From contig CAUYUJ010000048.1 of NCBI GenBank assembly GCA_963575745.1, positions 434,001-498,000 of the forward strand: 64,000 nt of DNA, read 5' to 3'. This document shows, one piece after another, positions 3,190 to 44,812 of the stretch. Every line of letters begins with the position of its first letter. Position 1 is the first letter of the stretch. Source of the stretch: Prorocentrum cordatum. Taxonomy: Eukaryota. Position numbers and translations under genes: made by a program. The notes under the pieces are model-generated. The model had not been told where the DNA came from. It saw only the letters and a program-made list of their open reading frames with translations, and did not search any database.

Positions 3190-3688
3190 TGCTGGCCCCA
3201 GTCTTCTCCCACCGTCTTCGTCACGGAAGGTGCTCCCTGAGGTACTCGCGACTGCAGTTTTCCGAGCCGGGCGTCTTCGCTCCGTTGCGGGCCCCGGGGC
3301 CCTCACAGATCGAGCGGGCTCAAACAGCGACGCAGAAAGAGGGTGTCCGTGGGTCTGGTCGTGTTTTTTGTTTTTTTGCGATGTTGCCTTTTTTTGGCAA
3401 CGTCGGATCTAGGGGATGTGATCCCCGTCCCTTTTCCTACGCCAGGGCGGTGCATTGGCGGGCTCTTGTTCCCTCCTGCTTTGCACCCCCCTCCAGTCCC
3501 CATACCCCTGCTCCTCGTGTTCCCTCATCCTGTTACTCCTCACACGGCCTCCCAGTTACAACACACTTCCTTTCTTTACCCACGTTCCCCGCTCCGCATC
3601 CCCTCACCCTGCACATCCGTACTTCCTATGATGTCGGTTCGCCACCATGACCCCCTTCACGACCCACCGAGCAGACGAGACCGAAGAG

Positions 3689-3710
3689 CCCGTGGCCATT
3701 TTGGCTCGAG
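3689..3710 (+). other. Relic dinoflagellate spliced leader (DinoSL)
   Basis: CCCGTGGCCATTTTGGCTCGAG versus DinoSL DCCGTAGCCATTTTGGCTCAAG: 19/21 identical after the first base, about 100 nt upstream of the transaldolase ATG. Confidence 0.85.
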
Positions 3711-3808
3711 TGCCACGCTGGGTCGAGACCAGGGGCGCGGCCCCTGCGAGGCGCACCAGGCTCGGCCACGCATCGCGCGGGCAGGCTCGCCCGCCGCCCT
3801 CGGGGGCG

Positions 3809-26094: not shown

Positions 26095-26210
26095 TTAAGT
26101 CGGGCATGTCCCGCTGCAGGAGGAATATTCAAACATAGTGAAACATGTTCTAGAGACAATTTGAACAATAACTGGGATATGTTTTAACTTTCTTCCGAAA
26201 TCTGCCTGTA
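26095..26210. mobile_element. MITE family A, copy 4 (target of the large transposon; its last bases resume at 44098-44117)
   Basis: Starts TTAAGTCGGGCATGTCCCGCTGCAGG and breaks at AAATCTGCCTG-TA. The missing GGGGGACATTCCCGACCTA follows 44097. Confidence 0.88.
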
Positions 26211-26234
26211 CTTGGATGGCCGCGGCGGCTGCTA

Positions 26235-26585
26235 GGTGGTTAGCGCGGATACTAAGGGGTTAGAGGATTTAGTATGTACGTACAAGTGAGTTGTAAGTAG
26301 GTTATAAGTGTTGTAAGTCGGATGTAAGTTGTATAACCAGCTACAACTGGTTAGTAGGAGATACTAACCACTTATAGCTGGAGGCTAACCTTGCTAAGTC
26401 TCTAGTAGAGGTTAGCTCGCTAAGTCCCCACTCTAGCTACCACTTACTAACCACTTAGTAACCACTTAGCTGCCACTTAGTAACCACCCAGTAACCACTT
26501 ACTAACCACTTAGTAACCACATAGTAAGTCCGCTAGCTAGCTTACTTACTAAGTGGTTAGCGGACTTACTAAGTGGTTAGCGGAC
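26235..26585. repeat. Left subterminal repeats (TAACCACTTAG / CTAAGTGGTTA)
   Basis: AT-rich block with many ACTTAG/CTAAGT motifs in both orientations, next to the TIR. Confidence 0.85.
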
Positions 26586-28187
26586 TCTGAGAAGGAGAAG
26601 GAGGAGGAGGAAGAGGAGGAGGAGGAGGAGGAGGAGGAGGAAGAGGAGGGGGAGAGAGGAGGAGGAGGAGAAGGAGGAGGAGGAGGAGGAGAAGGAGGAG
26701 GAGATGTCGAGGAGGAGGAGGAGTAGGAGGAGGACGGGGAGGAGGATGAGGAGGAGGAGGAAAGGGGGAGGCGGCGGCGGAGGCGGCGACGGGCGCGCCT
26801 CAGCCCAAGACGGCCGCTCGACGCGGCGGCCCTGCAGGGCCGCCGCGTCGAGCGGCAGCCTGGCGCGGCTGAGCGCGGCGCAGGCGAAGTTCGCCTGCGC
26901 CGCGCTCTGCGCCGCCATCTCCAGCGGCATTGCCGCTGGCGCGGGCGGCGGGGGGGGCCCCGCGCGCCGCTCGGCAGCCAGAGCGGCCCACCGCACGTAG
27001 CCGTCGTCCACAACCCAGAGGGTTGGGAGACGACGACGTGCGACGGGCCGATGGCTGCCGAGCCCGTCCCACCCCTCGGGGATGTCGAGGAGGATCCCCG
27101 ACATCCCCGAGGGGTCCTCCGAGAGGAGACTGCCCCATGGCTCGGGGTCGCCATCGAAAAACATGTCTTGATATGTTTTTCGATGGCGATCCCGAGCCGC
27201 GAAGCAAAGGGAAAAGGGAGGGCGCGCCCCCGCGCGGCCTGTAAGCCGCACGCGCGCGGGCGGCGTCTCCTCCTCCCCCTCCTTCTATCCTCCTCCTCCT
27301 CCTCCTCCTCCCTCTCCTCCTCCTCCTCCTCCTCCTCCTCCTCCTCCTCCTCCTCCTCCTCCTCCTCCTCCTCCTCTCCGCCTCCTCCTCTCGCCCTCCT
27401 CCTCTCGTCATCATCATATACTCCTCCCTCGTCCTCCTCCTCCTCATCCTCCTCCTCGTCCTCCTAACCCTCCGCTCCTCCCTCGTCCTCCTCCCCTCAT
27501 CCCCTCCTCTCCTCCTCCTCCCTCCCCTCCTCCTCCTCCTCCTCCTCCTAGCTCCTCTCTCTCCTCCTCCTCCTCCTCTCCTCCTCCTCCTCCTCCTCCT
27601 CCTCGTCCCTCCTCCTCCTCCTCTCCTCCTCCTCCTCCTCCCCCCCCCCCTCCTCCTCCCCATCCTCCTCTCGCTCTGAGCTATCTCGTCTTTTTCCTCC
27701 TCCTCATGCTCCTCCTCCTCCTCCTCCTCCTCCTCCTCCTCCTCCTCCGCCTCCTCCTCCTCATCCCCCTCCCCCTCCTCCACCCTCCCCCCCTCGTCAG
27801 AGGAGGAGGGGGGGAGGAGAAGGGGGAGGGGGGGCAAGATGAGGAGGAGAAGCAGCAGTAGGAGCAGGAGGAGGAGGGGGAGAAGGGGGAGGATGAGGGG
27901 ACGGAGGAGTTTGAACGACCGCACCACTGATCAACGACATTAGCGCTGCAGCGCAAGAGGAGGAGGAGGAACGAGGCGGAGAAGAGGAATCGGCGACCAT
28001 GCACTGTTCAGGTGCTGCAGCACCGAAGTGTCAATGAAAAAGGTACGCTACAGCGCAATGCAGAAGGAATCCACGTTTTCAAGGCGGAGAAAAGGAGTCG
28101 TCGACCATGCAACGTTCAGGTGCTGCAGCACCGAAGCATTTAGCAATGTAAAAAAGTGCGCTGCAGCGCCAGTAAGGAAACCACGTT

Positions 28188-30067
28188 TTAGGCTAAAGCG
28201 CACCACCGCGGCTGCGACCATATCGGGCGCGCCACTCGGATGCCGCCGCCCTCGCGCGGCGCCCACGCGAGCGAGCACACGATGCTCGCCGTGTGCGCCC
28301 AAAAGGCGTCGGCATCGCCGCCAAGCACGTGCGCGGAGGCGCGCGGGTGCAGCTTCTCCTTGAAGAAGTAGGGCAGGACCAAGCTCAAGCCATAGTAGTG
28401 GCCGTTCTTGGCGAAGGAGAGGTGTTCCAACACCTCGGCCGCAATGTGCTCCCCTCCTCCGTCCTCCAACAGCACGACGTCGCCGTATTTGACGTCGTGG
28501 TAGCGGCACCGCGCTGCAGCGGACGTAACAAAGTCCGCAGGCCCGAACTGCTGCAGCAGTTCGCGCGAGATGGCCTTGGACGGCCTGGTGGCGTTAACCA
28601 GGCAGTTAACCTTAAAGGTGTCGCCATCCATGAGCTGCCACAGGTGCCGCTCGGTGACGCTCTTCAGGACATTGGCGTCCCAGCCGCTGGAGGCTGCAGC
28701 CCCCGCCTGAAGAGCGTTCGCAAAGCGCTTGCTGGTCTTGTGCTTGCGCTCCAAAACCCAGCACGACGGCAGCGCCACATGGCCCCAACGCCTCACGTAG
28801 TTGGCGAAGTGGTGCAGGTAATGGAACTTCTGCGCCATCGTTTCCTTGCCAAAGACGTTGCTGTATGACAGCAAAAACCTGTTAACCGCAGCCTGCAGCT
28901 TATCCGCGTCTGCCTGACGCCTGGATACTCGTAGGATTTCTTCCACAACGATCGTGTGCGCCTCGAACACTGCGCAAGCCGATCGGACTGCAGGCGCTGC
29001 AGCGTCGCTAGCCACCTCCCTGAAGAAACACGTCAATCCGCCCGCGCGAACGCATGTCCGAACAAGAGGGGTGCAGTACATATCCTACAGAAATTCACGT
29101 GCGCTGCAGCGCATGTATTATTGGTCTGGCGGGGGCGCGAAGCATGCAATGATACTTGCATGGTTGTGAGCCCCTCGCTGGCGGTACACTTGAAATGCTT
29201 GCTGTCAACGTGGGACCTCACGCGCTTCTCGCCGAAGATCGCGCACGTGTCGGGGGAGATGGAGTGGCACCCTGGAAACGACCAGTCCTGGAAATATGCG
29301 TCTGCGCGCGCCCAGTAACCCTTCAACCTTCGAAACATTTGGAACACCCGAATGTTATATGTACCGTTGGCGAAAATACACTGCATCCAATCAACCATGA
29401 CTGCCTCGAGCGGCTTGAGTTTCCGAACCCGCTCAGGCAAATGGGGGTCCCAGTTCCAGCCAAGTCGGCGCTCCAACTCCTGGAACTCGCCCTTGTTCAT
29501 GACGTTGACCCCTTCGATCAATCTGCTGCAGATGGCATCGAGCAACGGCGCCGTCATCGGCTGCAGCCGCGACGCATCTGGTTCCGAGTGGTGAACAGCG
29601 ACACCCGTCGCATCAGAAGCAACTATATCCCGAACTTCGCCCTTCAAGAACACGTTGCGGCACATAAATGGTTTGATTCCTGACGAACCTTTCATTCCGA
29701 TCAAGCGGTGCATTGCATCCTCGTCCGCGATCCGACAGAGCCGCTGCAGCGACGCAAGAAGGCGTAATGGATATATACATGCGCACATGTATGCTAACTA
29801 ATATTGGGTGCTATGCGGCGACCGCTGCAGCGGCTGCATGTAAATGCCGAGGTCCATCTGGATGAGCTCCGTCGCGCCGTCGGGGCGCAGCCGCAAGCTG
29901 ATGCCAGCGCTGAAGTTGTGCCCCTGATCAGGCCAGAACTGCGCGAGGATTGCGTCCAGTAGCATCGTCAGTCCGCGCGGCTGGATGTCGTTCGCGGTCT
30001 TGGCCCGCATCGTCGCGAGCTGGAACCACGCATCCTGCGAACAAATCGCAGCACAACTGGCGCTGCA

Positions 30068-30112
<45 letters not shown>

Positions 30113-30623
30113 CCCTCTCCCCCCCCCCGCATATATCGTTGCTGCAGCAACGCTATCGCGAAAGTCCTCCGACGAAAGCGCCTGCGGGCCGAATTCCGCG
30201 ATCGCCCAGTAGATGCCCCAGGGACTTGCGGTTCTGCGCGTGCGCCAGCGCGTTGCCAGCGCCTATTTCATCGCCGTAAATGATGATGTGCCACGGGCGT
30301 GGCAGCTCCAGCGCCCGCTGCCACAGAGGCTGCATCGCGGGGAGGGCGCTGCAATACCACAGCATTGCTGCTGGACTGCAGATCTCCACCGTGTGCTGCC
30401 CGACTATCATGTTCTGGTGGAGCTTGCCGTACGGCGTGTTCTCACCGACCATGAGCTCCCGAGCGTCTCTGATATCCTGGCGTCGGGATCCCAATTCGGG
30501 GATTCCGTCTCGCTTAACGGACGCCAGGAATTGCGCCATCGCATTACAATGCATGAATGGCAGTTCCGCGCGAAGGCGGGACAGCCGCCGCAGCTTCGCT
30601 GGGCGGTCGTCCTCTGCCGCCAT
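28188..30623 (-). CDS. DDE transposase, CACTA/EnSpm-Plavaka-like. About 4 exons, with at least one 1-bp frameshift near 30221.
   Basis: Ordered motifs IIIYGDEIGAGNAL..RKS(W)GIYWAIAEFG, IADEDA..MKGSSGIKPF-CRN, MVDWMQCIFANG and KFHYLHHFANYVRRWG..SCWVLERKHK. These correspond to the D, D, DxMH-like and KxHxxxH...ER motifs recalled for CMC transposases. Intron 30035-30166 has a GAG|GA donor and TTCGCAG|G acceptor. Confidence 0.82.
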
Positions 30624-31310
30624 CGCGCGCGTTCCCGAGGCAAGCTTGCCTCCGTCGCTGCGCGCGCGCGGAGGGGCCCCTCCGCTAGGGGCCACGGCGA
30701 CTACGGATGGAAATGAGGCTGCACCGCGTGGAGAGCAACCAAATGCGCGCTGCAGCTCTAACTGCCAAGCAACAGTCTGGGGGCACATGGCGCTACAGCG
30801 CCGCTAACGTTCAATGGTGACAATCTGACGCGCTGCAGCGCGAACGTCCTCCTCCTCCTCCATCCTGCTCGCCATCCCCCTCGTCCTCCTCCTCTTCCTC
30901 CCCCTCCTATGCCTCCTCCTCCTCCTCCTCCCCCTCCTCCTCCTCCTCCTCTTCCTCCTCCTCATGCGCCCCCTCATCCTCCCCATCCTCCTCCTCAACC
31001 TACCCATCCTCCTCATCATCCGTCTCCCGTCCCTTCATCCTCCCCGTCACCATCACCTTCATCGTCAACAGCATCAATATCACTCGCCCTCATCATCCGC
31101 CACATCACCATCCAACGAGAAACTGCAAGCGAAACTGCGCTGCAGCGCAACACATTAACACATCATGATCCGCGCGCAAACTTTCAACCGTGGTCCACGG
31201 AGAAGCGCTGCAGCGCAACTCAAACAACACGCTCAACCACGTTCCCTCCAGCCATTACCAATCAATCGAACCAGCATGCTTCAGCAGGCGGTCGCCGAGG
31301 CCGACCTCGC

Positions 31311-31740
31311 TCAGGTCACCTTCATCTTTTGGCGTTCCGCAGCGAGGTCAACGCCTCGTTGAGTTTCTGGTTGGCCACGTCCGAAGCGGCGATGTCCATC
31401 TGACCCCGACCCTGCTACTCATACTCCTCATCCTCCCACATCATCGCCTTCCACCTCCTCCTGATCATCCCCCCTGTCGTCCTTCTCCCCCGCTGCAGCG
31501 GGGGAGTAGCCTGCCGCACTCATGAACCCCACCGTCCTCCTTCTCATCCGCCTCCTCATCCACCTGCAGCTCCGCGGTGCGGATCTGCACCTGCTTCTCC
31601 GCTTTCCTGGCGTTCTTCCGCGCCTCCTTCACCTCTGCTGTAGCAGTCGCCGTCGCTCTCGCGCGGGCCTCGCGCAACTCGTCGCGACGGTCGGCGCGCG
31701 CTTGCGCTTCGAACGGCTTGTCGCAGCGGCGCGCCGCCAT
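31311..31740 (-). CDS. Small charged, coiled-coil-like protein, probably 2 exons
   Basis: MAARRCDKPFEAQARADRRDELREAR...KAEKQVQIRTAELQ, then a CAG acceptor at about 31400 and MDIAASDVANQKLNEALTSLRNAKKMKVT-stop. Confidence 0.45.
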
Positions 31741-32486
31741 TGCGAGCCCAGTGAGGAGGCGGAGGAGGTCCGTTGCCAGCGCCCGCTGCAGCGAACGATG
31801 GCGGCTGCGACGCGCGAGCCAAGTGAGGAGGAGGAGGAGGGGGAGGAGGGGGAGGAGGGCATGCCATCGGCAACGCGCAACATGAGCGAATCGCAGCGCT
31901 GCAGCGCGTGACTTGGCAACAACCATGCGGGAGACAACGCTCGACATCACGAATGATGGCGCTGCAGCGCGCATCGACGAGGAACGACCGGCACTCAAGA
32001 CGAGCACGCCACGCAATACATGGACACCGCGGCTGCAACTGCACACTCACAAACGCGCCAACGCTACAACGGCACCACAAGTCTGACAGGCGCTGCAGCG
32101 CTGCATCGGAACTCAACAGCACGCAATATCTACGCCACCATCCAGGAAAGCGAGCGCTGCAGCGCTGCATCGTGATCATGATGGCGATGCAAACGTTGAA
32201 CACAAAGGCGCCAGCGCTGCAGCGCCCGCATCCAAGAGAACCCGTCAACATATTTGACTTTCATCCTCCTCGTCGCCCGTGCGAGCCGCGCGACCGCCAG
32301 GCAAGACCATCGCCACTACCGTTCATATCATCGGCCAGCGTTCCATCCAACCTCGCACTAATCCTCACCATCCTCCTCATTCCTTCTCCTCCACATGCTC
32401 ATCCTCCTCATCATCCTACCCATCCTCCTCCTCGCCCTCATAATCCTCATCCTCACCTCCATATGCCGACAGTGCCCGTTGCGCGC

Positions 32487-34348
32487 TCACGGCTTGCCGC
32501 GACGGCCAGTGAAGTTCGGGTCGCGGCACGTGCCGCAGCCATTCGGCAGGTAGCGGCATTTGCTGCACCCGGGTGCCATTTGGCCCCGTTTGGCTGCCGC
32601 CTTGCCCTTGGGCTTGGCCTTGGCCTTGGCTTTGGCCTTCCCTTTGCCCTTGGCCTTCGGTTTGGCCGTGCCCTTGGCCGCCGTCTTGCCCTTGCCAGCG
32701 CCTGTCTTGCTCTTGCCCTTGATCGCGCTCTTGCCCTTGCCCTTCTTGCCCTTGCCCTTGCCCTTGCCCTTGCGAGGCAGCTCGCCTTTCGCGCTGCCCG
32801 CAGCCAAGGTCTCGATCGCCTGCAGCACAGCATCCTCGTCTCCGTCTGCTGCTGCAGCAGCATCTTCGTTTGGCGGCGTTGGCGCTGCTGCAGCAGCATC
32901 TGGCGCCGCCGCTGGCAATGCTGGCCCAGCTGGCGAATCGCCAATCGCGGGGGGACTCGCGGGGGGGCTCGCCGTGGGCGCCGCAGGGCGGCGCGGGAAG
33001 AGCTGCAGCTGCAGCTCGTTGGGCGGCGATGGCGGTGGCGCAAACGCTGCCAGCATTTGCTGCATCACGGCCATCGCGTCCATGGGTTGCATTGGCGCTG
33101 CAGGCGGCACGGAGGGTGACCCCGATGGTGTCCATGGCACAATGGCAGTGCTCGGCTGATGCGGCGGGGCGGCAGCCCGCAAGCCCTTGTTGGTCAGCCT
33201 GAGAGGCGCGCGAGCCTTGATGGCGTTGAGACCCGCAGGCCGCTTCAGCGGCGCACGCGTAGCATGAAACCTATCATGCTCTATGCGAGGTGGACCTAAA
33301 GGACCGAGCTCACCGAAGCACCCAAGACATCCAGAACAATCAGCGCTGCAGCGCATGACGGGGTGGCAGCAGCCTCGTAGATGCGATGCCACGTTGGCGA
33401 GGTCGCGCGTCACATCGATCGGCGGGTCCGCATCGGTGTACGCCGCGTCGAAGATGTGCTGAGGGAGCTGCCGAGGATCTGCTGGGAAATTCCAAGTCAC
33501 TGTCGCCGCTTGCCCCGTCGCGCCCCTGCGGCTCGCCAAGAACTGACCCTGTAAAGGGCGACTCGTCGGGAAACCCTAACGCTGACGCGCCGCATCGCAT
33601 TGGCTGCAGTCAGTGCGATGCGATGCGTCTGCGTTAGGCGTTCCCGCCGAATCCCAAACCTTCATCTCCGTCACGATCCCGTAGAGCTGCCCAGGGTTTG
33701 CGTCTGGAAGATGGGTGCATGCCATCAACGCCGCCAACTCTTTCAGCGCGTTCTCGCTCGGAACCGTCAAGCCGATGACACCGCGACGTTTGATCAACGC
33801 GCGCACCTTCGCGACGATGCTCTGGTTGGGGTCGCGAAATAAACCCCAGTCCTGCATGGTAAAGTCCACCAGCCTACGAATCGACGCAGGCATGCTGCAG
33901 CATGATAACATACGTACATTTGAAACATGAACATGGTAACATACATAAAGTACAGAACAAACAATGAAACCATACATGTGAATAACACTTCGGCGGTCCG
34001 ATGTGCAAAGCACGATGGATAGCACCGCCCTGACGCGAGCGTCTGCACGCGCATCTGGAGCGCGGGCGTCGCCGTGCCCACGCGCGCGGCCAGCGCGGCG
34101 CTGAGGCGCGCCTTGTGGCTGTCCGCGAAGCCCGACGCGGTGATTCGATTCTGCAGGGTAGCTGCTTGGGCAGCCCCGATCGTCCCCAAGTTGTGAAGCT
34201 GCAGCTGCACGCTCATGGACAAGGCGGACTGGCTCTGCGCCATCGCGTCGGCGGCGATGACGCCGATCTGCGATGCGAAGAAGGCGTCGCAGCTGTCCAG
34301 GTTATCCAGGATGTGGTTGATGGGTGTGGCCGCAGCCGCGGCAGACAT
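32487..34348 (-). CDS. Multi-exon unknown protein with a Pro/Ala linker, Lys/Gly/Ala-rich tail and C-terminal CxxC-x6-CxxC
   Basis: Coding-like segments MSAAAAATPINHILDNLDSCDAFF..., DFTMQDWGLFRDPNQS...PSENALKELAAL..., FPADPRQLPQHIFDAAY... and KGKGKAKAKAKAKPK...PGCSKCRYLPNGCGTCRDPNFTGRRGKP. Confidence 0.65.
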
Positions 34349-35171
34349 GATGCCCTCCGCGAGGGCGAGGGGGCGCGCGGACGCTCCGAGGGGAAGCGCG
34401 AGGGAGGGCCTCCCACACTGCGAGAGCTGAAGCACTCGGCTGCTGAGGTGGAAGAGAGGCCACAACAGTGCAGATGCGCTGCAGCGCAACGATCGCATGC
34501 AATTAAGGAACACACGTGAGCGCTGCAGCGCTCAGCAGAAATCATCGTCACAAAGTAACATGAAGCGCTGCAGCGCTATGCATGCGCACCATGATGGAAC
34601 GCATGGTAGTGGGCAATAGGGAGAGAGATATAGAGTGATGGAAAGGAGAGGAGGGAGATAATGAGGGACACGGGGGGGAGGGGGGGGGCGGGGGGAGATG
34701 CGAGGAGACACGGGAGGGAAGGACACGAGCGCGGGCGGGCGGGCGGGCAGGACACGGGGGGAGATGCATGATCATTTGAGGAACACGGAAGGGACGGTGC
34801 GAAAGACACGGAGGGGTGGGAGGGACATGGGAGAAACACGGGGGGGGGGGGCACGGAAGAGACACGGGAGGGACACGGGAGTTCGGGGGCGAGCGGGCGG
34901 ACGGACGCGGGAGCGGTGCGGAGGGACACGGGCGGGAGCGCACGGAAGGCAGGTGGAGACACGGAAGGGGCACGGGAGAGACGCGGGAGAGACACGGGAG
35001 ACGGATAGGTATACACGGGAGCTCGGGAGCGGGCGGGCGGGCAGACACAGGAGGGACACGGAAGGTGTCCGAGGAGGGCGCGGGACGGATTCAGGAGATG
35101 CGCGAAGTTTGATCAGGAGCAAATACCGAAGCGATCTGGGAGCCTCGAAGGCAGCTGGGACATCGACAGAG

Positions 35172-35323
35172 GCGTGTCTGTTCAATAGAGGGGGCTATTG
35201 AACAGACACGGGCGTGGCTGTTCAATAGAGGGGGCTATTGAACATGGCATGTTCAATAGAGGGGGCTATTGAACAGACACGGGCGTGGCTGTTCAATAGA
35301 AGGGGGCTATTGAACAGACACGC
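35172..35323. repeat. Four tandem hairpin units TGTTCAATAG-aggg(g)g-CTATTGAACA
   Basis: Units start near 35179, 35219, 35250 and 35290. Confidence 0.9.
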
Positions 35324-36367
35324 CGCTGTCAGACAGCATCACCCCTGCAGAGGGGCACCGACGCTCTCAGATCGCTTCACCCGAAGCTCCCGTTCGACCT
35401 CAGATCAGCCGTCCTGATGCCAACATCCAGCACTCCAGCCCACCCCAACGGCCACCCACGCAGTCCCAGAACACTGTCCACACTGCTGATTTCGAGGTGG
35501 GAGTGAAACTAAGAGAGGCGCGAAGTACATCACGCGGCGCTGCTGCAGCAGCGTCGCGACGAGGTTGACGATGCCGAAACCGCTGTCAACTGCAAAGATT
35601 TACGCTCACGGCTCTGCTGCAGCAGCGTCGCGATGGCTCGAGACTGCTGAGGACAAGGCTGATGGGAGCTGGTGGGGCTGCCAGGAGGCCATGGGGGGAG
35701 CTACTCGGCGGCGCAACGAACTGTGCTGAAGGGGAGCAGGGAGAGTGGCGAAGGGCGATGCGATGCGAGACGGCTTGCCATCTGAAGTGCCCCAGGACCC
35801 CCCCAAGTGCCCCCAAACTTTCCTGGCCAATCCAAGGCCGACCCCTGGCACATCAGCCCATGCGAAAAAAAGTCAGCGGATCAGGATGTGAACGTCGACG
35901 ATGGCAGATAGATGTGATGAGGATATCGGAGCGCCTTTCTGGGCGACAGCGCGGGCGCACCACGCGATCTGGCGCACGAAATATAACCTGGCCTAAACAC
36001 ATGCATGCGTCGGCGTCAGCTATGCTCGCGAACTGATCCAATCCACCCCCCCATTGCTCCCATTGATCTTACATGTTGGGTTGCTACAGCATGTATCCTA
36101 TCACTATGCGTTCGTTGTCCCCCTCGCTCACGGGAGAGTGGATACCCGCTGCAGCGGGCATCCTGTCTACCGTCTCTCTCCAATGTGTCTTCACTCCACC
36201 CCCACGCTGCGTCTCCATCGTCCCCCTCGCATTCCCTATGTATATCACGTCTCCCCCCTGTCTACCTCTACTATAGTCCCCCCTCTCCCCCTGTCTACCT
36301 CTACTGAGTTACCGTCCCATTCCGTCGCCCACCAGTAGTGGAATGCTCCGCGGCCGCGCCGCAGCTC

Positions 36368-37126
36368 TCATGTGGCGCCCGCAGGCGCTGCAGCGCCAGG
36401 GGCCGCTCGGCGGCCGCCTCCGCCCTCGGCGCTCGGCGGCGCGCCCTCGGCGCTCGGCGGCCGCCTCCGCCCTCGGCGCTCGGCGCGGCCGCCTCCGCCC
36501 TCGGCGCTCGGCGCGCCCTCGGCGCTCGGCGGCCGCCTCCGCCTCCGCCTCCGCGGCCTCATCCGCGGCCTCCTCCGCGTGAGGCGCCCCTCGGCGGCCT
36601 CCTCCGCGGGCGCCTGCGCCTCCTCGGCGGCCTCCTCGGCGCCAGCGCCGACCCAGACCTGTGCTGGGCCAGCGTAGTACTCCTCCGCGAGGGCGGCCGC
36701 GTCGGCGCACTCGCCCGCCAGCAGCAGCTCGCAGAGCTGCTGCGCCCTATTGAACCAGCCGCCACGCCGCTGCTGCTGGTCCCCGTCGCGGACAAGCTTG
36801 CCCTTGCCGCCCTTGCTCTTGTCCTTGCCCTTGCCCTTGCAAGGTGGGCCGCCGCCGTCCTTGTCCTTGTCCTTGCCCTTGCCCATGCCGCAAGGTGGGC
36901 CGCCGACGTTGTCCTCGTCCTTGCCCTTGCCCTTGCCCTTGCAAGGTGGGCCGTCGCTGCCGCCCTTGCCGTGCGGGGCGGCGCGCGACGTCGGCCGCGC
37001 CTTGGCGGCAGCGAGCTCGGCCGCGGGGTCCCGCGGCTCGAACCCTGGCGGCGGCGCCGCAGGCGGCGTCGGCCGCAGGACGGCGAACTCCTCGGCGTCC
37101 TCGTCGTAGTCGAGCTGCGACGCCAT
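36368..37126 (-). CDS. KG-rich unknown protein
   Basis: MASQLDYDEDAEEFAVL..., three GPPC(K/G)..KGKG repeats, then RRGGWFNRAQQLCELLLAGE. The 3' part is minisatellite-like. Confidence 0.5.
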   Translation of the reverse strand: MASQLDYDEDAEEFAVLRPTPPAAPPPGFEPRDPAAELAAAKARPTSRAAPHGKGGSDGPPCKGKGKGKDEDNVGGPPCGMGKGKDKDKDGGGPPCKGKGKDKSKGGKGKLVRDGDQQQRRGGWFNRAQQLCELLLAGECADAAALAEEYYAGPAQVWVGAGAEEAAEEAQAPAEEAAEGRLTRRRPRMRPRRRRRRRPPSAEGAPSAEGGGGRAERRGRRRPPSAEGAPPSAEGGGGRRAAPGAAAPAGAT

Positions 37127-37171
37127 CGCTGCGCGATGCAGCGAGCGAAGCTGCAGCTCGCCAAGCTGCAT

Positions 37172-37291
37172 GATGGGCTTGGTTTCCACCACCAGTACCA
37201 TAAGTTGGAGGGAGAGGTCCTCCTCCTCCTCTTCTTTCTCCTCCTCCTCCTTCTCCAACATATGGTAGTGGTGGTGGAAACCAGTCCCATC
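37172..37291. mobile_element. Fold-back MITE family C
   Basis: GGTTTCCACCACCAGTACCATAAGTTGGAG ... CTCCAACATATGGTAGTGGTGGTGGAAACC. Related copy at 58835-59127. Confidence 0.7.
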
Positions 37292-38206
37292 ACTGCAGCT
37301 GAAGCTGCACTCGGGCGCGCGGGCGCGCGACGCTGCAGCGCGCGAAGCTGCAGCTGCAGCTGCGCGGAACAAAAAACAGCGGCGGTGCCAACGACGAATA
37401 CGATGGCGACGACGCTGACGACGATGGACCCCTGCTAACCAGTCGACTGACCCCCCAAAGTAACATCACCCCGCAAAGTAACATCACCCCCAACTGAACC
37501 TCCGAAGGCCAACGACTGGATTGACCTCCCCAAGGCTGCCCCCCTCAGGATAGGAGGAGGAGGAGGGGGATGAGGGGGGGAGGGAGGATTGGAGGGAGAG
37601 GAGGAGGGGGGGGAGGAGGGGGGGCAGGAGAAGGAGGAGGAGGAGGAGGACACGGATGAGGAGGAGAAGAAGGAGAGGGAGGAGGAGGAGAAGGAGGAGG
37701 AGAAGGAGGAGTAGGAGAATGAGAGGGAGGATGAGGAGGAGGAGGAGGAGGAGGAGGAGGAGGAGGAGGAGAGGGAGTATGCGGAGGCAGGAATAGGCAG
37801 AAGGAGCGGGGGGGCGGGGCATGGGTGCCAACTGGTTGTCTTCCTCCTCCTCCTCCTCGTCATACTCCTCGTCCTCGGCCTCCTTCTCCTCCTCCTCCTC
37901 CTCATCATCATCATCATCATCATCCTGCCCCCCTTCCCCTGCTCCGAGGTGCTGGCAGCGAGCGGTGGGAACCGGTGAAAATGAGGGCGTTCCAGAACGT
38001 CGTCCTCAATGTCGTCGTCCTCCTGATCACCCTCCTCCTCCTCAGCATCATCCTCCCTCCACCTTCTTCTCCTGCATGCACTGCTCTGAATTACGTCGTC
38101 TTTAACGCCGTCGTCGTTGTCTCTGTCGCCGTCGCCGCCGTCGCGATGCTGTCTCCGACTGAAACAGTGGTGCTGCAGCACTGACCGCGCGCGCGCCGCG
38201 CGCCCG

Positions 38207-38560
38207 TCACTTCCGCGGCTTCTTCGCGATGTGGCATTGGACTGTCAGCGCAACCGCTGCCTCGCGGTCCCCGCGCTGAAGCGCTTCCCGAATCATGTCG
38301 CACACAAGCTTCCACATGCCAACCTTGGTTTCAGCATCGCGCTTGCGCGCGGCTGCAGCCGCGCGCGGGGCTGGCGCATCACTGGCGGCTGCAGCCGCGG
38401 TCCTCGTCGACGTCGGAGGCGGTGGTGGCGGCGGCGGCGGCGGAGGAGGGGGAGTAGCCGCATATGTCGCATCCGATGCAGCGGACTTCGCATTCGGCGG
38501 CGGCACTGGCTCCGAGGGAAGCCGCCATGGCGGCGTCGCTGCACTCATGTTGGCAGCCAT
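38207..38560 (-). CDS. Small unknown protein
   Basis: MAANMSAATPPWR...RKRDAETKVGMWKLVCDMIREALQRGDREAAVAL. The helical motif loosely parallels GGWFNRAQQLCELLLAGECADAAAL in the neighbouring gene. Confidence 0.4.
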   Translation of the reverse strand: MAANMSAATPPWRLPSEPVPPPNAKSAASDATYAATPPPPPPPPPPPPPTSTRTAAAAASDAPAPRAAAAARKRDAETKVGMWKLVCDMIREALQRGDREAAVALTVQCHIAKKPRK

Positions 38561-39075
38561 TGATGTTCTGATCACAGGTGGCTGCGAACCACATGCAATA
38601 ACATAAAGCGAACATGCGGGCTGCAAGCGCGATCGAAGCGCTACATCAACACGCCAGACACGCAAAATGTAAGTCAGCGCTGCAGCGCGACGCAAAAATC
38701 TGATATCGGCACGCCAGACACCCGAACGTAAATCAGCGCTGCAGCACGATGGGCTCCAAGCACACGAAACGTAAGTCAGCGCTGCAGCGCCGTGAGGTCA
38801 CACATCGACGGCGGCAACGCGCGAGAGGCACACTTGATCGGATCGTAGTGTCGTCGCGCGGCAGCACGCTTGATCATACCAACGATTCGCAATGACGCCA
38901 ACAGTAGCGAACATTGGGGGGATCCACCAACAATCCGCAATTATTATCCCAATCCTCCTCCTCGTTCTCCTCCTCGCCCTCGTCCTCGTGCTCGCCCTCC
39001 TCGCTGCCATTCTCAATCGCACTGCCGGCCGTGATCGCACGCCCCAGCGATGCGGTCGACCGAGCGCGCCGCAGC

Positions 39076-39839
39076 TCAGTCCGAGTCGGCCTCCTCCTCC
39101 TCCGCATCGCCCTCCGCCTCCGCTTCCATCTCCTGGAGCTCATCCGCTTCGCAATCCTTGAGTTCGGCGGTGCACCACTTCGCCGCGGCCGCTTCAGCGT
39201 CATCCTTGCTGCAGCCGCGGTTTGTGCGGAACAAGGCCGTCCTGCTGCAACCGCAGTCTATGCGGACGGCCCGCCAAGCTTGGAGCCGCTGCACCCAATA
39301 GATGCGGGCGCCGCAAGGAACGTCGGTCTCGTGGCGCCGCGGGCGCTTCAGCACCGTGCTCGCCTCTGCCGCCTCCGCCGCCTCCTGAAGCAATTTGGCC
39401 TTGATGTACTCTACGCCCTTCTCGTGCAGCGCCACCTGCAGCTTGTCCCCCCCCCCCCCTATGAGGCGGGGGAATGACAATCTGCAGCTCTGTTGCCTCC
39501 GTATCGCCAAACGGCGGCAGCTGCGCTGTCTTGAAGCACTTGTCCACTGGAACCTGGCCAGTCGCGGCCGGACCGCGTGGTCGGGCGGCGGCCTGGCTCC
39601 GCTGCAGCGAAGAGCGTCGTCGGCGCCGTTGGCCCCGACGACGCGGTGCGCTGATTTTTCAGCCACGTTAGGAACATCGTGCCTCGCAAGCCCTGAGCCT
39701 TGCCGCACACCCACTTGCTCCAACCTGCGGTGGTCACGGTGATGCACTCGCGGTCTCCGATGACCTCGACGGCCGTGACCAGCTCGCGCCCCGTACGGTT
39801 GTCGTGCAACACGACGCAGTCGCGCTTGATCGTCGCCAT
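39076..39839 (-). CDS. Protein with a C-terminal AP2-like domain and acidic tail (frameshifted)
   Basis: Three overlapping frames join into MATIKRDCVVLHD..., LPPFGDTEATELQIV..., KLQVALHEKGVEYIK...KRPRR...RIYWVQRLQAWRAVRIDCGCSRTALFRTNRGCSKDDAEAAAAKW. Shifts near 39610 and at the poly-C at about 39450. Confidence 0.55.
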
Positions 39840-40333
39840 CGCGCGCGCGGCGCGCCGAGGCTGCAGCCCGAGCGCGGTCGCACTTCAGCGCCAAAATTGC
39901 TGCGATGGAGTGATGAGGCAACATGTGCGCGGACGAGGTGCTCATGATGAGGTGCGCTGCAGCGCATGTGAAAGATGAAGCGAAGAGCAACGATCACATC
40001 GAGCACAACAGTGATGACGAAGCCGCTGCAGCGGCATGTCTGTGGGAAAGGCTGATGTCAGCACCAATATTGTACAGTCGCTGCAGCGACGATGCTGGCG
40101 CAACGAATCGTTCCGCGCGCTGCAGCGCCGCGGCAAGTATCGCACTTCGCACCAACCCGCGCACTGTTTACACCAATCGGAGGGCCACGCTCGGTGCCGT
40201 CATGTGCGCTCGCCGCTCCTTAAGCCCCCTCATCCTCCTCCCTATGCCAAACCTTACCCTGCCTCCTCCTCCTCCTCCGCATCACCCCTCCCTCCTGCCT
40301 CATCCTCCCGCGTGGTCCCTCTATATCGCCAGC

Positions 40334-43190
40334 TCAGGCCGTCCTGAGCTTCTTGGCTGGCCGCGGCTGCAGCCGCGGCCACGGCTTCACCGCCAGGAAG
40401 TCGCCCGCGGACAGGGCGCAAGTGTTATGCATCTGGGGCACCCCCACCTGCACCTTGTTGACGCCTGTCCCGAACGTCACGGTCTCCTTTCGGAGCTCCA
40501 TGTTGGGCTCTGAGTCGGACTTTGCCACCACCCAGAAGGGGCTGACAAAGGCGTCGGGGCCCCGCGACCCCTCAGCGGGGGGCCCTGCGAACTGCGGGCC
40601 CACGAAGAACTCGTAGAGGCCAACCTTCCCCAACGAGATGCTCTCCGCAACGCAGCCCGTGCTGACCCGCGTGGACGAGGCTGAAATGCGACCACTCCCA
40701 CCGCGTGGAGCTACATGGCGCGCAGTCGGTAACATCACTGACCTCGTCGCTACGGCCTGACGTGCCCCGAAATCCTCGCTACCTCGTGCTCAGCGCAGCG
40801 CTGCAGCGCGGCGTCGTCGGAGGGGGGCGCGGACGATTGCGGAAGCACAAGTCTGACGAGCTCACCCACTTTGAACGCTCGCTTGCAGCGCGCGGCAGGT
40901 GGGTCCTGCAGGATCTCCAAGTGCAAAATGTTCGCCTGGTACTTCAGCGCTTGGAGCCGCAGCGCCATGTTGCATGCCCCCTTGAACGCGTCCATCGCCC
41001 AACCCTCGTGGGCTGGCGGCAAGTGCTCCTTCGTGAACGGCAACTGCTCCTGCACCCTGGACGTCAACTTGTAATTCTCGAGCAATATGTTTACTTCAAT
41101 CCGCCCGCTCGGCTAACTGCTCCGTGCGCTGCAGCGCATCGACCAACCCATTGCAACTTAAGTACAGGAAATACAATATCGCAGTTACTACCTCCTCCTC
41201 CCCCCTCCCTGCTCCCCACGGGCGGCGGGGTGGCTGCAGCCACGCAATGGAGATCTCTTCGCCCACCAGGTCGCCGTGCAACTTCTTCTGAGCGGTGATC
41301 CCATTCTCCGAGATGGAGAGCACCTCGAAGACGTCATCCACCTCCTTCTTCTGGACGATGTGCTTCCCCACGTCGAACCCTGCACGCCGCATGCGGAAGA
41401 CGTTGCTCTTCAACTCAGCGGCCGACGACGCTGCCGCGCGCGGCGCGTCTGCATCGGCGCTCGCTGGGAACTCGGGTGCGCCATCGCCTTGCTTGTCGGT
41501 CTGCACCGCCTTGCCGAACTCGATCCCCAAGCTCTTCATCTGCAGCTGGGCTGGCTCCCCGAGCTCATGGAGGAAGACCTCTCTGGAGGGTCGCTGCAGC
41601 GACATTGAATGGCGAAAAGCAGGGAGGGAGGGAAACAAGGAGCACACGAAAGGTGGCGTGAGAAGATACCTGTGCTATATCTGCTACGCATCCGAAAGCG
41701 CGGTCTCCTGGCGCTCGCTTCTTCACCAGGTACATGGCACAGCGGACATCCAACTTTGTGATGTGCAAGAAGCCCTGCTCCGCTCCGATATCCAACCTCT
41801 TCACGAGCGACCTTGCGTCGGCCATGAGGTTGTCGGCCGCAGCCACGTCCGCCTTGCGGGACGCGACGTGGACGATCTCGTTTGCCTTGATCCGCCCATC
41901 GCTTCAGCGATTGCGTTTGGGAATAAAGCAATGTAACGGTGCGTGTGTGTGTGTGGGGAGGGGGGAGGGGTGGGTACGCAGTTCTAACAATGCAGCGCAA
42001 TGCATAGATGCGCTGCAGCGCATGTCACTACAAGGGGGCGCCGACAAGCTTATGGATGGTCCTGCACATGCTATCCACCACGTGCTCGCCTGAATAGTTG
42101 GCCTTCACGAGCGCCGCTACGACATACGGGTACGACTCCTGGTGCTTCCCCCATTTAATCGAATTCAACTTGCGCCAGAATTCAGAGCCGCACATCAAAG
42201 TTTGCCCCGAGACGTCCACATTCGTGAAGGTCTTGAGGGCTTCATCTATTTCACGGAGAAGTTCTCCGTTTTGTGGCCCGAGCTCAACAAACTTGCACAA
42301 GTCAGCGATCCACGCCTTGCAAGGTGGGTTCGCGTGGCCCGCTTGCTCGGCGATGTCGCGCCAATCGGGCTTGCTGGAACCCTCAGCGAGGCTGTGTGCC
42401 AAGAGCATCCGCCCACCTGCCTGCAGCAAGCGCCGAGCCGATCAAGTGCTGCAGCACGGTAAGATATAATGCTCCTGCTCCTCGTTCTCACCTCCTCCCC
42501 AACGCGCTCCCACTCATCACCCTCCTCGTGCATCATCCTGGTCCTTACTACATACCGCTATATACTATAGTGGGGATAGGCTGCAGCCTGACCGAATGAT
42601 CTCGGTCTCGTGAACCGCCTCCCTGACGTCGGCGTTCAAAGCCCTCTGCACGAAGTTCTTGAGGCCCTTCACTTTGGCCACCGCGTGCTTGATGATCAAC
42701 CACGTCAGGCCCTTTTTGACTGCCGTCGCAAGTTGCGGATGCAACGCGCGCAGCTTTTTCCGGAGTCGATGTTGTCCCGAGAGTCTGCCAGCGCCTTCAC
42801 TGTGGTCGGCGCCTTGGCCAGCACGCAGCGGAGGAAGACGTTCGCGTGGGAGCCGCCCACTGACGTATACCGCAATGAGTCCAGCGGGGGGCACCGACCC
42901 CCGCTGAGCCGCGAAAGGCGGTCGTTCGCCATCGCGGTCTCTTCCAACTGCGCCCCCTGGGCGCAAATCTTCGCGCCTAAATTGTGAGCCCGCGCAGGGT
43001 TCACTAACGAACCGCTGCGGTTCCGAATGTCGATGCCCATCTGGTTCGGTGGGACCTGCTGGTAATACGCTAGCCCCTCCGCCAGCAGGAACTCCTTCAG
43101 TTGATCCCACCCCGATGCCAACCTCCCCGAGGAATTGCTTTCCTCGATGTACTGCAAGATCTGCTCCTCCTGGCGCGCCTGCAGCGCCAT
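40334..43190 (-). CDS. Large ~6-exon protein with an N-terminal ParB/Srx-like region and a C-terminal degenerate SET-like region
   Basis: Coding blocks at about 43190-42594, 42420-42040, 41900-41668, 41580-41245, 41090-40850 and 40700-40334. N-terminal VPPNQMGIDIRNR..AHNLGAKICAQG..SVGGSH. C-terminal ARCKRAFKVGELV..SPFWVVAKSDSEPNM..NTCALSAGDFL. Frameshift near 42760. The gene is well supported, but the domain names come from motif resemblance only. Confidence 0.65.
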
Positions 43191-43849
43191 GCCAGCGCTA
43201 TATATAGCGCCGAATGCAACGTGCGAGCCCGCGGGCGCGACGGCGGATGCGGCGCGCGGCCGCAGCTTGAGACAAGCTGTCGCGCGGCGTGCGCGTGAAC
43301 ATCGACTTGCATGGACATGCAACTTGCGAGCCAAAATGTTGATCTGGGCTGCAGCCCGAGGCCCATGAAGCACGAGCGCGCACGCGCTGCAGCGCGATGC
43401 GACATCACGACGACAACCATTTTTTTGCGCTGCAGCGCAAAGTAACATACGTGCTATCAAATCTGGAGCGCTGCAGCGCTCAATGCGACCATTGAAAAAA
43501 ACAACGAATACAACAAAACATAATTGACATGTGCATTCAAATTCCTTGCAAACGGAGCTGGGCGAAAATGAAGATCCGAACAACGCGCAATTAGAAAACA
43601 TGCATTTAACTCAACATTCAGCGCTGCAGCGCTTCATATTCAGCGCACGCAGCGCTTCATGTTCATATAAATCCGAAGGCAGCGCTGCAGCGCTTCTCAT
43701 ATTTAAAGCAAAAATCCAGGACACCGACTCCAAATCAAAATGCAAAATTTGTAGCGCTGCAGCGCTCAACGAACAAACTCAGCTCTTTCAAGACGTGGAT
43801 TTACCTTTTTTTCCCTGTGCATGGCCCTTGGATAACAAGTGCAATGTAA

Positions 43850-44071
43850 CCGCTAAGTCACTTATAACCTACTTAGCAAACTAGCTATAAGCGGTTATAA
43901 GTGGTTAGCTAAGTGCGCTAAGCACTTAGCTAACTGGTTATAAGTGGATAGCTAAGTACTTACTAAGTCATTACTAAGTGGGCCACTTAGTAATGACTGA
44001 GTAAGTACTTAGCTAAGTCCGCTAACTACTTACTAAGTATTTAACTTAGCGTAGTAAGTATGTTAAGTACT
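43850..44071. repeat. Right subterminal repeats
   Basis: Same CTAAGT/ACTTAG/TAAGTGGTTAG motifs as at the left end. Confidence 0.85.
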
Positions 44072-44156
44072 TAGCAACCGCCGCGGCCATCCAAGTAGGG
44101 GGACATTCCCGACCTAGTCCAGGGGTCGGTCCCCCACCGATGACCGTGGTCCATAG

Positions 44157-44812
44157 GGCCCACCGCACCCATTTTGGCACACCCCTCACACGCTTTGTGG
44201 CCCCATAGAGAGCTCCACCACAGGCCCAGATGCCAGCGCTTGCATGCGCCCACCGTGCCCATTTTGGCACACCCATCACACGCTTTGTGGCCCCATAGGG
44301 AGCTCCACCTAAGGTCCGCATTGCAGCGCTCGCATACGCCCACCGTTCCAATTTTGCGACACCTCTTGATCGTTTCTAGGCTCCGTAGGGAGCCCCGTCG
44401 AAGGCCCAGATGCCCGCGCTCGCATGCGCCCACCGCACCCATTTTGGCACACCCCTCACGCGTTTTGTGGCCCAAACGGGAGCTCCACCACGGGCCCAGA
44501 TGCCAGCGCTCGCATGCGCCCACCGCACCCATTTTTTGCACACCTCTCACACGTTTGGTGGCCCCATAGGGGCATCCGCCGAAAGCACACAAGGCAGCGC
44601 TCGTATGCGCCCACCGCACCCATTTTGCCACACCTCTCACATGCTTCGTCGCCCCATAGGGAACTCCATCGAAGGCCCAGATGCCCGCGCTCGCATGCGC
44701 CCACTGCACCCATTCTGGCACACCCTTCACGCACTTCGTGGCCCCAACGGGAGCTCCACCGAATGCGGCGCATACAGCGGCAGTGCCCACAACTGCATAT
44801 GGTTGGGTCTTT
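44157..44812. repeat. ~90-bp tandem repeat, about 7 copies
   Basis: GCCCACCGCACCCATTTTGGCACACC...GTGGCCCCATAGGGAGCTCCACC recurs every 90-91 bp. Confidence 0.93.

Follow-up and report, generated by a model that had tools for sequence, protein, structure and literature searches.

The 64,000-nucleotide stretch of Prorocentrum cordatum DNA analyzed here (contig CAUYUJ010000048.1, positions 434,001 to 498,000 of the forward strand; hereafter the window) carries a multi-exon gene on the minus strand at 40334-43190. Our results suggest that this is a passenger gene of a 17.9-kb DNA-transposon-like element (26209-44097), which in its intact form would encode a predicted nuclear protein of ~740 residues with a ParB-like module joined to a SET-fold module, and we consider this reading, taken together with the functions proposed below, moderately probable. 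From the N-terminus, the intact protein would consist of a ParB/Srx domain followed by a helical DNA-binding region, a conserved helical middle part, a SET fold devoid of conserved catalytic-type residues and a basic tail. What the analysis establishes is that the protein has these two folds in a conserved two-domain architecture, that the gene lies in the element and that the copy in the window is inactivated.

A preliminary description of the gene, made from its letters alone, had proposed a ParB/Srx fold for the N-terminal part, and structure prediction bore this out, as the top structural matches were ParB, KorB, Noc, PadC and sulfiredoxin (Z 7.9-4.4). The annotated P. cordatum paralog P0002 (331 residues) was modeled with AlphaFold2 from a 143-sequence alignment, with a mean predicted local distance difference test score (pLDDT) of 92.1 and a predicted template modeling score (pTM) of 0.87. 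When this model was compared with the PDB by Foldseek the E-values were weak (0.1-2), and the meaningful rows were KorB, ParB, Noc and PadC. In a Foldseek-independent structure search of 48,161 chains, ParB/Srx-superfamily proteins made up 10 of the 14 top chains. PadC (6ryk) came first with Z 7.4-7.5 (root mean square deviation (rmsd) 4.0, 129/132 residues), and the search also returned KorB (8qa8, Z 6.3, 163 residues aligned), pNOB8 ParB-N (Z 5.9), the serine kinase SerK (Z 5.4) and the sulfiredoxins of Arabidopsis (6ky4, Z 5.4, 89/89 aligned) and human (Z 4.5), with Atu1540, SbnI, BrxU and SspE likewise among the top 14. Rescoring the 300 candidates aligned by Foldseek according to Z gave a still cleaner list, in which the top 15 rows were all ParB/Srx (Z 7.9-4.4) and the next, unrelated row stood at Z 3.9. 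Here Myxococcus ParB with CTPgammaS (7bnr, rmsd 2.8, 96 aligned) and Bacillus ParB with CDP (6sdk, 163 aligned, model residues 41-331) both reached Z 7.9, and Caulobacter ParB (7bm8) reached Z 7.5 over 176/180 residues (model residues 41-330). Because the list is exclusively ParB/Srx, the targets are covered almost completely and unrelated rows follow only after a gap, the modeled N-terminal part is clearly read as a ParB/Srx fold; it corresponds to 42624-43079 on the minus strand (P0002 residues ~38-205, of which the window copy lacks residues 80-96).

The alignments to ParB lacking its C-terminal domain covered 172-176 residues and continued up to model residue 330-331, and thus into the helical region after the ParB/Srx domain (42076-42620, minus strand, across intron 1; P0002 residues ~207-331). 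In the model this region superposes on the DNA-binding domain of ParB and KorB, which supports the presence of a ParB-like helical DNA-binding region whose binding to DNA is a prediction; searched alone, it gave weak matches (Z ~4). A homodimer prediction with the N-terminal 331 residues scored 0.00, with the alignment unused and the fold uncertain, and speaks neither for nor against a dimer.

Conservation across the 143 sequences was concentrated in a set of polar residues, R58 (100%), N57 (96%), H132 and N202 (93% each), N106, T133 and R138 (90% each), E211 (86%) and N134 (85%), which looks like a preserved ligand pocket. The nucleotide motif of ParB is the arginine-rich GERRxRA, and sulfiredoxin has a G-G-C-H-R loop. 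The G-G-S-H-T-N stretch of the present family recalls the sulfiredoxin loop and would be placed at the position of the ParB arginine patch. The earlier view that the signatures of both domains had diverged and that the protein may be non-enzymatic was too pessimistic for the N-terminal domain, where this strongly conserved polar set argues against a merely degenerate signature, whereas it holds for the SET part as described below.

Several observations weigh against the ParB-like assignment and have to be set beside it. The Z score of each N-terminal match is below 8, a range that the search tool flags as possibly reflecting a common structural arrangement. The arginine motif of ParB is replaced by GGSHTNxFLR in the family, and therefore binding of cytidine triphosphate (CTP) is not to be assumed. 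At the sequence level, Pfam gave no family for P0002 or for P0009, a relative used below to model the C-terminal part, at E≤10 (search of 12 element proteins), nor for 30 relatives at E≤0.01; NCBIfam returned nothing for seven proteins; and profile searches of the PDB with four alignments gave 0, 5, 1 and 0 rows, none of them ParB, SET or transposase. The seven exon pieces of the passenger gene likewise gave nothing real in Pfam, and exon 1 had no usable match in the Protein Atlas. With these points on both sides, we propose that the N-terminal module would be a ParB-type protein that binds its own element's DNA, with the NR...GGSHTN..R...N pocket probably occupied by a nucleotide, and we see the chances of this as about evenly balanced. 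Compared with the CTP clamps ParB, Noc, KorB and PadC, the likeness lies in the modeled fold of the N-terminal domain and of the helical DNA-binding region that follows. The differences from bacterial ParB are a missing sequence-profile match, GGSHTN..R in place of the arginine motif and a module ~110 residues longer, as well as a eukaryotic host, introns and the fusion to a SET fold, and clamp behavior is thus putative here.

For the C-terminal part we used P0009, a natural read-through relative in which the intron is in frame and which is 63% identical over exon 6. Its alignment held 22 rows, namely 18 full-length relatives, P0010, P0011 and two exon pieces of the window, and the resulting model had a mean pLDDT of 75.6, with a single low stretch at residues 68-113, the intron-encoded loop. 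Foldseek matched this model to SETD8, MLL1 and MLL5 at E 0.014-0.1 and probabilities of 0.94-0.99 (SETD8 0.99). The wide structure search found 70 chains at Z≥2, of which 54 had Z≥5 and 27 had Z≥8, and almost all of the 50 rows listed were SET or PR domains, headed by LegAS4 (Z 10.4, rmsd 2.1, 109 aligned), SET8 (10.1), Set1 (9.8), NSD2 (9.6) and PRDM11 (9.4); the exceptions among those 50 were a Toxoplasma conoid protein and BurB. The SET fold that had been guessed for this end of the protein is accordingly what fills its structural match list, with Z values up to 10.4, and as modeled the assignment of 40394-40959 (minus strand, across intron 5) to a SET fold is unambiguous.

SET enzymes have an S-adenosylmethionine-binding NH...PN motif and a catalytic tyrosine. 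Among the 18 full-length members no conserved polar residue was found in the C-terminal domain, where only P599, L615 and L721 are invariant or nearly so, and the stretches that match the SET motifs by order (aligned by eye) read PFW...(A/P)NM and GD.L and come without a conserved tyrosine. The missing polar residues and tyrosine suggest that the SET-fold module is probably not a methyltransferase. Its likeness to SET and PR proteins is one of fold (Z 8-10.4 to SET8, Set1, NSD2 and PRDM 2, 4, 9 and 11, from a family that includes inactive PR domains), and it differs from them in having no match to the Pfam SET model (PF00856), no conserved polar residue and no recognized pre-SET or post-SET parts. 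Possibly, the SET-like domain would act as a non-catalytic dock by which chromatin proteins or the transposase are tied to the DNA-bound protein, leading to anti-silencing or pairing of the ends; we regard this step as doubtful. A member of the ParB family with an anti-silencing role is VirB. En/Spm TnpA and VANDAL VANC are accessory proteins that have been proposed or shown to bind repeats within the element that encodes them, with a role against silencing or in end pairing, although their folds are unrelated to those described here and a comparable function in the dinoflagellate element is one that we infer.

The same structural data could be read as a two-headed enzyme, in which a nucleoside triphosphate-using ParB/Srx module (a kinase, a sulfiredoxin-like enzyme or a nuclease) is combined with a divergent but active SET methyltransferase acting on dinoflagellate chromatin proteins. 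The high conservation of the N-terminal polar set would fit such a protein, as would the presence of SerK, SbnI, Srx and Atu1540 among the structural matches and the strength of the SET fold match. However, the best and longest N-terminal matches are the DNA-clamp proteins ParB and KorB with their DNA-binding domain included, not the single-domain enzymes, and the C-terminal domain of the 18 full-length members is without a conserved polar residue or tyrosine, and we judge an enzyme of this kind unlikely.

The combination of the two modules is not restricted to this locus. A profile of the N-terminal domain, made from seven close relatives, was run against 1.84 billion cluster representatives (clustered at 50% identity) and matched 1208 of them at E≤1e-3, 437 at E≤1e-10 and 29 at E≤1e-30, which is more than expected by chance. 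The known range of these sequences covers P. cordatum and marine and other metagenomes. Among the best 150 matches, all 18 proteins of at least 650 residues contain both domains, aligned from the N-terminal through the C-terminal domain, and all 18 end in a basic AKK-type tail. The ParB-like/SET-like fusion suggested by the preliminary description is thus the conserved state of a large family and not an accident of the locus. A family of at least 1208 clusters without sequence-level annotation in Pfam, NCBIfam or the PDB can now be described as a ParB-like and SET-like fusion, and this description would aid the annotation of dinoflagellate genomes, which are rich in 'dark' genes.

The gene itself can be followed over six exons, ~724 codons in the damaged window copy, from an ATG at 43190 to a stop codon at 40334-40336 in the minus-strand translation. 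Exon 1 (42588-43190) contains the ...VPPNQMGIDIRNRSGSLVNPARAHNLGAKICAQG...SVGGSH... stretch, exon 5 (40856-41112) AFKVGELV, and exon 6 (40334-40680) PFW, SDSEPNM and NTCALSAGDFL, so that the N- and C-terminal residue patterns first noticed in this multi-exon coding sequence are both present. The junctions were placed from reading frames and splice-like dinucleotides. Exon 1 is joined to exon 2 (42032-42416, predicted junctions) in the annotated paralog P0002, where the splice connects ...EIIRSG to GRMLL..., and its end in the window directly abuts a GCTGCAGC palindrome, from which a GC donor would come. Exon 3 (41670-41901) has a predicted GT donor after 41670, the acceptor of exon 4 (41241-41593) lies within a palindrome at 41593-41600, and the donors of exons 4 and 5 are uncertain by ~6 and ~10 nucleotides, respectively. 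When full-length homologues were aligned over the exon 5/6 junction, a gap fell exactly at the intron. A pattern search with the close-relative alignment further identified a single metagenome locus, L001, a relative at 50-60% identity, where the six exons are kept in single frames with 41-60% amino acid identity while the intervening DNA is not conserved. The P0002 splice, the alignment gap and the exon conservation in L001 together support the predicted six-exon structure.

Among named proteins, the nearest are entries titled 'unnamed protein product [Prorocentrum cordatum]' (82-88% identity), and the G+C content at the locus is ~0.62. The product ends in the tail PAKKLRTA (40337-40360, minus strand), which is of the conserved AKK type, with a lysine column of at least 90% among full-length members, and which we read as a putative nuclear localization signal. 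Just ahead of this tail, the single coding palindrome of the gene (exon 6, 40366-40373) encodes a conserved PRLQP, which is also found in P0009-P0011.

The copy in the window appears no longer to be functional, as comparison with the paralogs P0001-P0003 and with contigs of four public sequencing runs (X1, X3, X7 and X8) revealed two lesions in the passenger gene. Relative to P0001-P0003, 17 residues (positions 80-96 of P0002) are missing from the window protein, and the reading frame shifts near 42759 (from -3 to -2). The first difference corresponds to a 51-nucleotide deletion at 42955-42959 that removes 17 codons from the ParB-like core on the minus strand, in the model one helix and one strand; contigs of two of the four runs (X1 and X3) carry ~51 extra bases at ~42957, and the X7 and X8 pieces listed stop short of that site. 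The second is a 2-nucleotide insertion at 42757-42761 that shifts the frame in exon 1 (minus strand), where the two bases are missing from contigs of all four runs. In X7, 31.6 of the 98.3 depth lacks the two bases at 42759, and because this is only part of the depth both variants must be present in that run. A further lesion lies in the neighboring DDE-like gene of the element, which compared with its close paralog P0159 and the distant homologue P0163 changes frame from -3 to -1 near 30218, where there is no intron. By comparison with its relatives, the window copy of the passenger gene is shown to be inactivated by the deletion and the frameshift, and the lesions in the two genes imply that the window holds a decaying copy of the element and that intact copies are found elsewhere. 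Over 27900-44100, the contigs of X1 have T/A in place of C/G in the window at 63 of 111 differing places and the reverse at 17, and the same asymmetry was seen for X3, X7 and X8; deamination in one lineage could account for it, or else a GC-biased change in the other.

The gene was originally suggested to be carried by a transposon, and this is largely supported by the sequence context, as the element (26209-44097) is bounded by mutually inverted terminal blocks and contains five recognized genes, all on the minus strand. A 29-nucleotide core at 26209-26237 is repeated in inverted orientation at 44069-44097 with 27 of 29 positions identical, including the first 20, and starts with TACTTGGATGG. 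These cores are embedded in terminal blocks of 250-380 nucleotides: the left block (26209-26590, plus strand), rich in ACTTAGTAA/GCTAAGT-type short repeats, aligns inverted to the right block (43850-44097, minus strand) with 68-93% identity and E down to 1.9e-7, and the right block holds a hairpin with 33-nucleotide arms at 43949-44015. In the four runs, contigs cover 27.9-44.1 kb in tiled fashion and with even depth; one of them stops at 44096. The right block is in addition homologous to positions 466-790 of L001 (E 4.6e-12), the only other terminus seen, outside of which L001 continues into unrelated repeats. From this terminal block (~466-790) inward, L001 has a palindrome array, the six-exon gene, a second palindrome array and homologues of the next two genes, here called B and C. 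L001 shares the terminus and the gene order but not the flanks, and the paralogs lie on different contigs; for these reasons we consider the element probably to have been mobile.

The putative transposase is gene E (28239-30623, minus strand), the DDE-like gene with the frame change described above. Its full-length homologues measure 666-695 residues, and in a six-sequence alignment D132-E133, D231 and E522-R-K-H are invariant, with Cys/His-rich stretches between them, a residue layout that putatively is that of a cut-and-paste transposase. At least four diverged paralogs of gene E are found on different P. cordatum contigs, the paralogs of the passenger gene are likewise spread over different contigs, and variant copies of the element occur inside run X7. 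What detracts from transposon carriage is that no known transposase family was recovered for gene E in Pfam (including six DDE-like proteins), NCBIfam or PDB profiles, the one lead being an Atlas cluster in which 20% of members have DUF4218 (score 0.93, recognition below the mark), and that no target-site duplication of 8-11 bp with at most one mismatch was found within 70 nucleotides of the ends of this one decayed copy. The support for transposon carriage comes from the inverted blocks, the L001 terminus with its unrelated flanks, the DDE-like gene, the diverged copies and the conserved gene order. CACTA-type termini or inverted repeats had also been looked for near the first and last palindromes, where only palindromes were found, as the terminal blocks lie further out; these begin with TACTTGG and not with CACTA or CACTG, and CACTG is confined to internal positions (27925 and 28002).

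The missing transposase family and target-site duplication would be expected if the block were a non-mobile, one-directional cluster of host genes from a multi-copy family, with terminal blocks that are unrelated repeats. According to the P. cordatum genome paper, dinoflagellate genes are often arranged in one-directional clusters and have undergone much duplication, with 64.8% of genes being dispersed duplicates. Against this explanation, the mutually inverted blocks bound the palindrome-rich block exactly, L001 shares the terminus and not the flank, and three inactivating lesions here with other copies intact are typical of decaying transposon copies; we hold such a host cluster to be very unlikely. 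An endogenous viral or virophage-like element would fit several orphan genes lying in one block together with a distinctive DNA motif, but no capsid, polymerase, packaging or integrase families were detected in the 109 open reading frames of 25.5-46 kb, for which Pfam gave low-complexity matches below the cut-off only, and 2.9 million viral contigs yielded no relative (45 pattern matches, none of them a viral locus). A BFVD fold search was also weak (E at least 0.07), with many ParB-type phage proteins among the matches, and a viral origin therefore seems hardly credible to us.

Within the DNA-transposon-like element the most distinctive DNA feature is a palindrome with the core GCTGCAGC, which occurs 74 times in the window, 71 of them in 27945-43756 and three in the remaining ~46 kb outside the element. 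The 12-mer GCGCTGCAGCGC is present in 30 copies as compared to 0.01 expected, and L001 has 30 GCTGCAGC sites as compared to 0.65 expected. The palindromes form arrays in untranslated DNA: seven with a GCTGCAGC core, six of which are GCGCTGCAGCGC, lie upstream of the passenger gene (43348-43763; L001 counterpart 1203-1342), five lie between the passenger gene and the next gene downstream (39860-40126), and four lie past the DDE-like gene, on its 3' side (27945-28167). In L001 the counterpart of the downstream array is at 4489-5017 with 54-55-nucleotide spacing, a regularly spaced array being given at 4702-4866. Bacterial ParB-family sites (parS, NBS, OB) are short palindromes of similar size. 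We therefore tentatively propose that the binding sites of the N-terminal module would be the element-specific palindromes of 12-16 bp with the GCGCTGCAGCGC core, arrayed by the gene and across the element, a step that we think somewhat unlikely when taken by itself.

The distribution of the palindromes inside the gene speaks against a role as protein sites. Seven of its eight palindromes sit in the five introns, which make up ~24% of the span. The predicted acceptor is located inside a palindrome (after GCTGCAG and ahead of the last C) in intron 3 of the window and in introns 1-3 of L001, and the predicted donor lies directly ahead of a GCTGCAGC palindrome in introns 1 and 4 of the window; degenerate palindrome copies are also seen at the acceptors of window introns 1 and 2. 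Moreover, the arms are complementary for at least 2 bp beyond the 8-bp core at 56 of the 74 sites, as compared to ~16 expected from shuffled pairing, and they use 12 arm dinucleotides. Such variable but complementary arms suggest hairpins as much as a fixed binding sequence, and the compensatory pattern in the sequences suggests selection for a hairpin or cruciform. The bases flanking the core differ among the 74 sites and yet pair, giving perfect palindromes of up to 24 bp. When 147 representatives were examined for peptides that the palindrome would encode, ALQR was found 8 times as compared to 0.55 expected and the other frames were near expectation, a signal too weak to build on.

These features are what would be expected if the folds and the transposon are as described and the palindromes are RNA signals, for splicing and perhaps as spliced-leader acceptors, or remnants of introner type, with the ParB-like module binding elsewhere, for example to terminal repeats of the ACTTAGTAA/GGTTAGCTAAGTGG type. 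The intronic position of seven of the eight in-gene palindromes, the coinciding acceptors and donors in the window and L001, and the variable complementary arms all favor this explanation, and the terminal blocks do have their own dense short repeats, which are kept in L001. The P. cordatum genome paper reports an enrichment of introns for 'introner elements', inverted repeats at both intron ends, which points in the same direction. On the other hand, GCTGCAGC is absent from the ~1.15-kb intron of the transaldolase gene, the sole recognized host gene of the window, and only three sites fall in the 46 kb outside the element; the near-absence outside the element implies that the motif is not a general splice signal of the genome. 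In addition, arrays with 40-70-nucleotide spacing in untranslated DNA recur in L001, where the proteins are only 50-60% identical. We regard the RNA-signal explanation as a serious possibility, short of an even balance, and note that it is not exclusive of palindromes that are bound by the protein, the two being compatible.

In its most far-reaching form, the proposal of a ParB-like module that binds the palindromes of its own element would amount to a eukaryotic ParB-parS-like system, in which a nucleotide-switched clamp loads at its own GCGCTGCAGCGC sites and spreads, and the catalytically dead SET domain brings in or keeps out chromatin proteins, by which the element would mark and protect itself in a genome largely without nucleosomes, with the palindromes doubling as splice signals. 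We find this distinctly improbable; if true, DNA-level and RNA-level functions would be combined in a single 12-bp motif.

Among the precedents found, the element appears closest to the giant Plavaka (EnSpm/CACTA) transposons of the red alga Bostrychia, which are reported to measure 17.4-19.1 kb and to carry three accessory genes (bioRxiv 10.1101/2025.02.11.637652). There, PAG2 combines an N6-adenine methylase with a SET domain that Pfam detects, PAG3 joins an N-terminus that is ParB-like (best HHpred match 7BNR, E 0.29) to a putative 2-oxoglutarate oxygenase, and tandem inverted-repeat arrays adjoin PAG3, which its authors propose binds and modifies its own element (bioRxiv 10.1101/2025.02.11.637652). 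The likeness extends to the size class (17.9 kb here), a DDE gene with accessory genes, ParB-like and SET modules and inverted-repeat arrays beside the ParB-like gene, and the best match of PAG3, 7BNR, ties here with 6sdk for the top Z (7.9). The parallel in the arrays counts against reading the palindromes as RNA signals, and the way in which PAG2 and PAG3 combine such domains with enzymes counts in favor of the two-headed enzyme. The differences are that the modules in the dinoflagellate host are fused in one polypeptide with no visible oxygenase or DNA methylase partner, that the SET domain here is missed by the Pfam SET model that detects that of PAG2, that no match assigns the transposase here to Plavaka/CACTA, and that the termini are long blocks not starting with CACTA; the likeness to PAG2 and PAG3 is one of the features described for them. 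SET accessory genes in HarbingerS and Helitron transposons, as cited in the same report, are a further precedent (bioRxiv 10.1101/2025.02.11.637652).

We did not find a ParB-SET protein, or elements with accessory genes of Plavaka type, described for dinoflagellates in the literature searched. The present finding describes in structural terms, for the first time, a very large family without annotation, and points to a possible eukaryotic DNA clamp of ParB type. It extends the occurrence of ParB-like and SET modules by inverted-repeat arrays in giant DNA transposons to a second, unrelated algal lineage, and the different wiring in the two suggests a recurrent strategy by which transposons recognize and manage their own DNA. 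It also provides a candidate ParB-type clamp in a eukaryotic nucleus and a defined 12-bp palindrome that may be a protein site or a splice or processing signal.

The remaining genes of the element are less well characterized. Gene B (39079-39884, minus strand) adjoins the passenger gene and is also present in L001 (5036-5620), in segments of 43% and 36% identity. Gene C (36368-38600, minus strand) is KG-rich, has the motif RRGGWFNR and is kept in L001, where a KG/KD-rich tract followed by RRGGWFNR.Q.LCE is common to 36368-37465 of the window (minus strand) and 7220-8140 of L001 (plus strand). Gene D (32487-34400, minus strand) is also KG-rich and has the Cys motif GCSKCRYLPNGCGTCR; in 32487-33575 (minus strand) a long Lys/Gly-rich tract at the end is followed by GCSKCRYLPNGCGTCR, without a Pfam match, and a zinc-binding module for DNA or chromatin is one possibility for this region. 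A simple repeat of ~1.3 kb of (GGA)n/(CCT)n type, with thin cover by run contigs, occupies 26590-27900, from the left terminal block toward the first palindrome.

Outside the element, the transaldolase gene is of host type and lies on the plus strand at 3632-4666 and 5822-6292 (Pfam TAL_FSA, E 6e-54 and 1.5e-12), split by its ~1.15-kb intron. Just beyond the right end of the element, at 44158-44763, a tandem satellite with a 90-nucleotide period is repeated 6.7 times, with a higher-order period of 271 nucleotides, and in the four runs it is covered hundreds of times more deeply than the element. L001 has a different tandem repeat outside its terminus (positions 1-465), made up of units of ~60 nucleotides followed by CCAGCCCCAGCC-type repeats, and with the satellite at the right end in the window this means that both copies of the element compared here adjoin satellite DNA.

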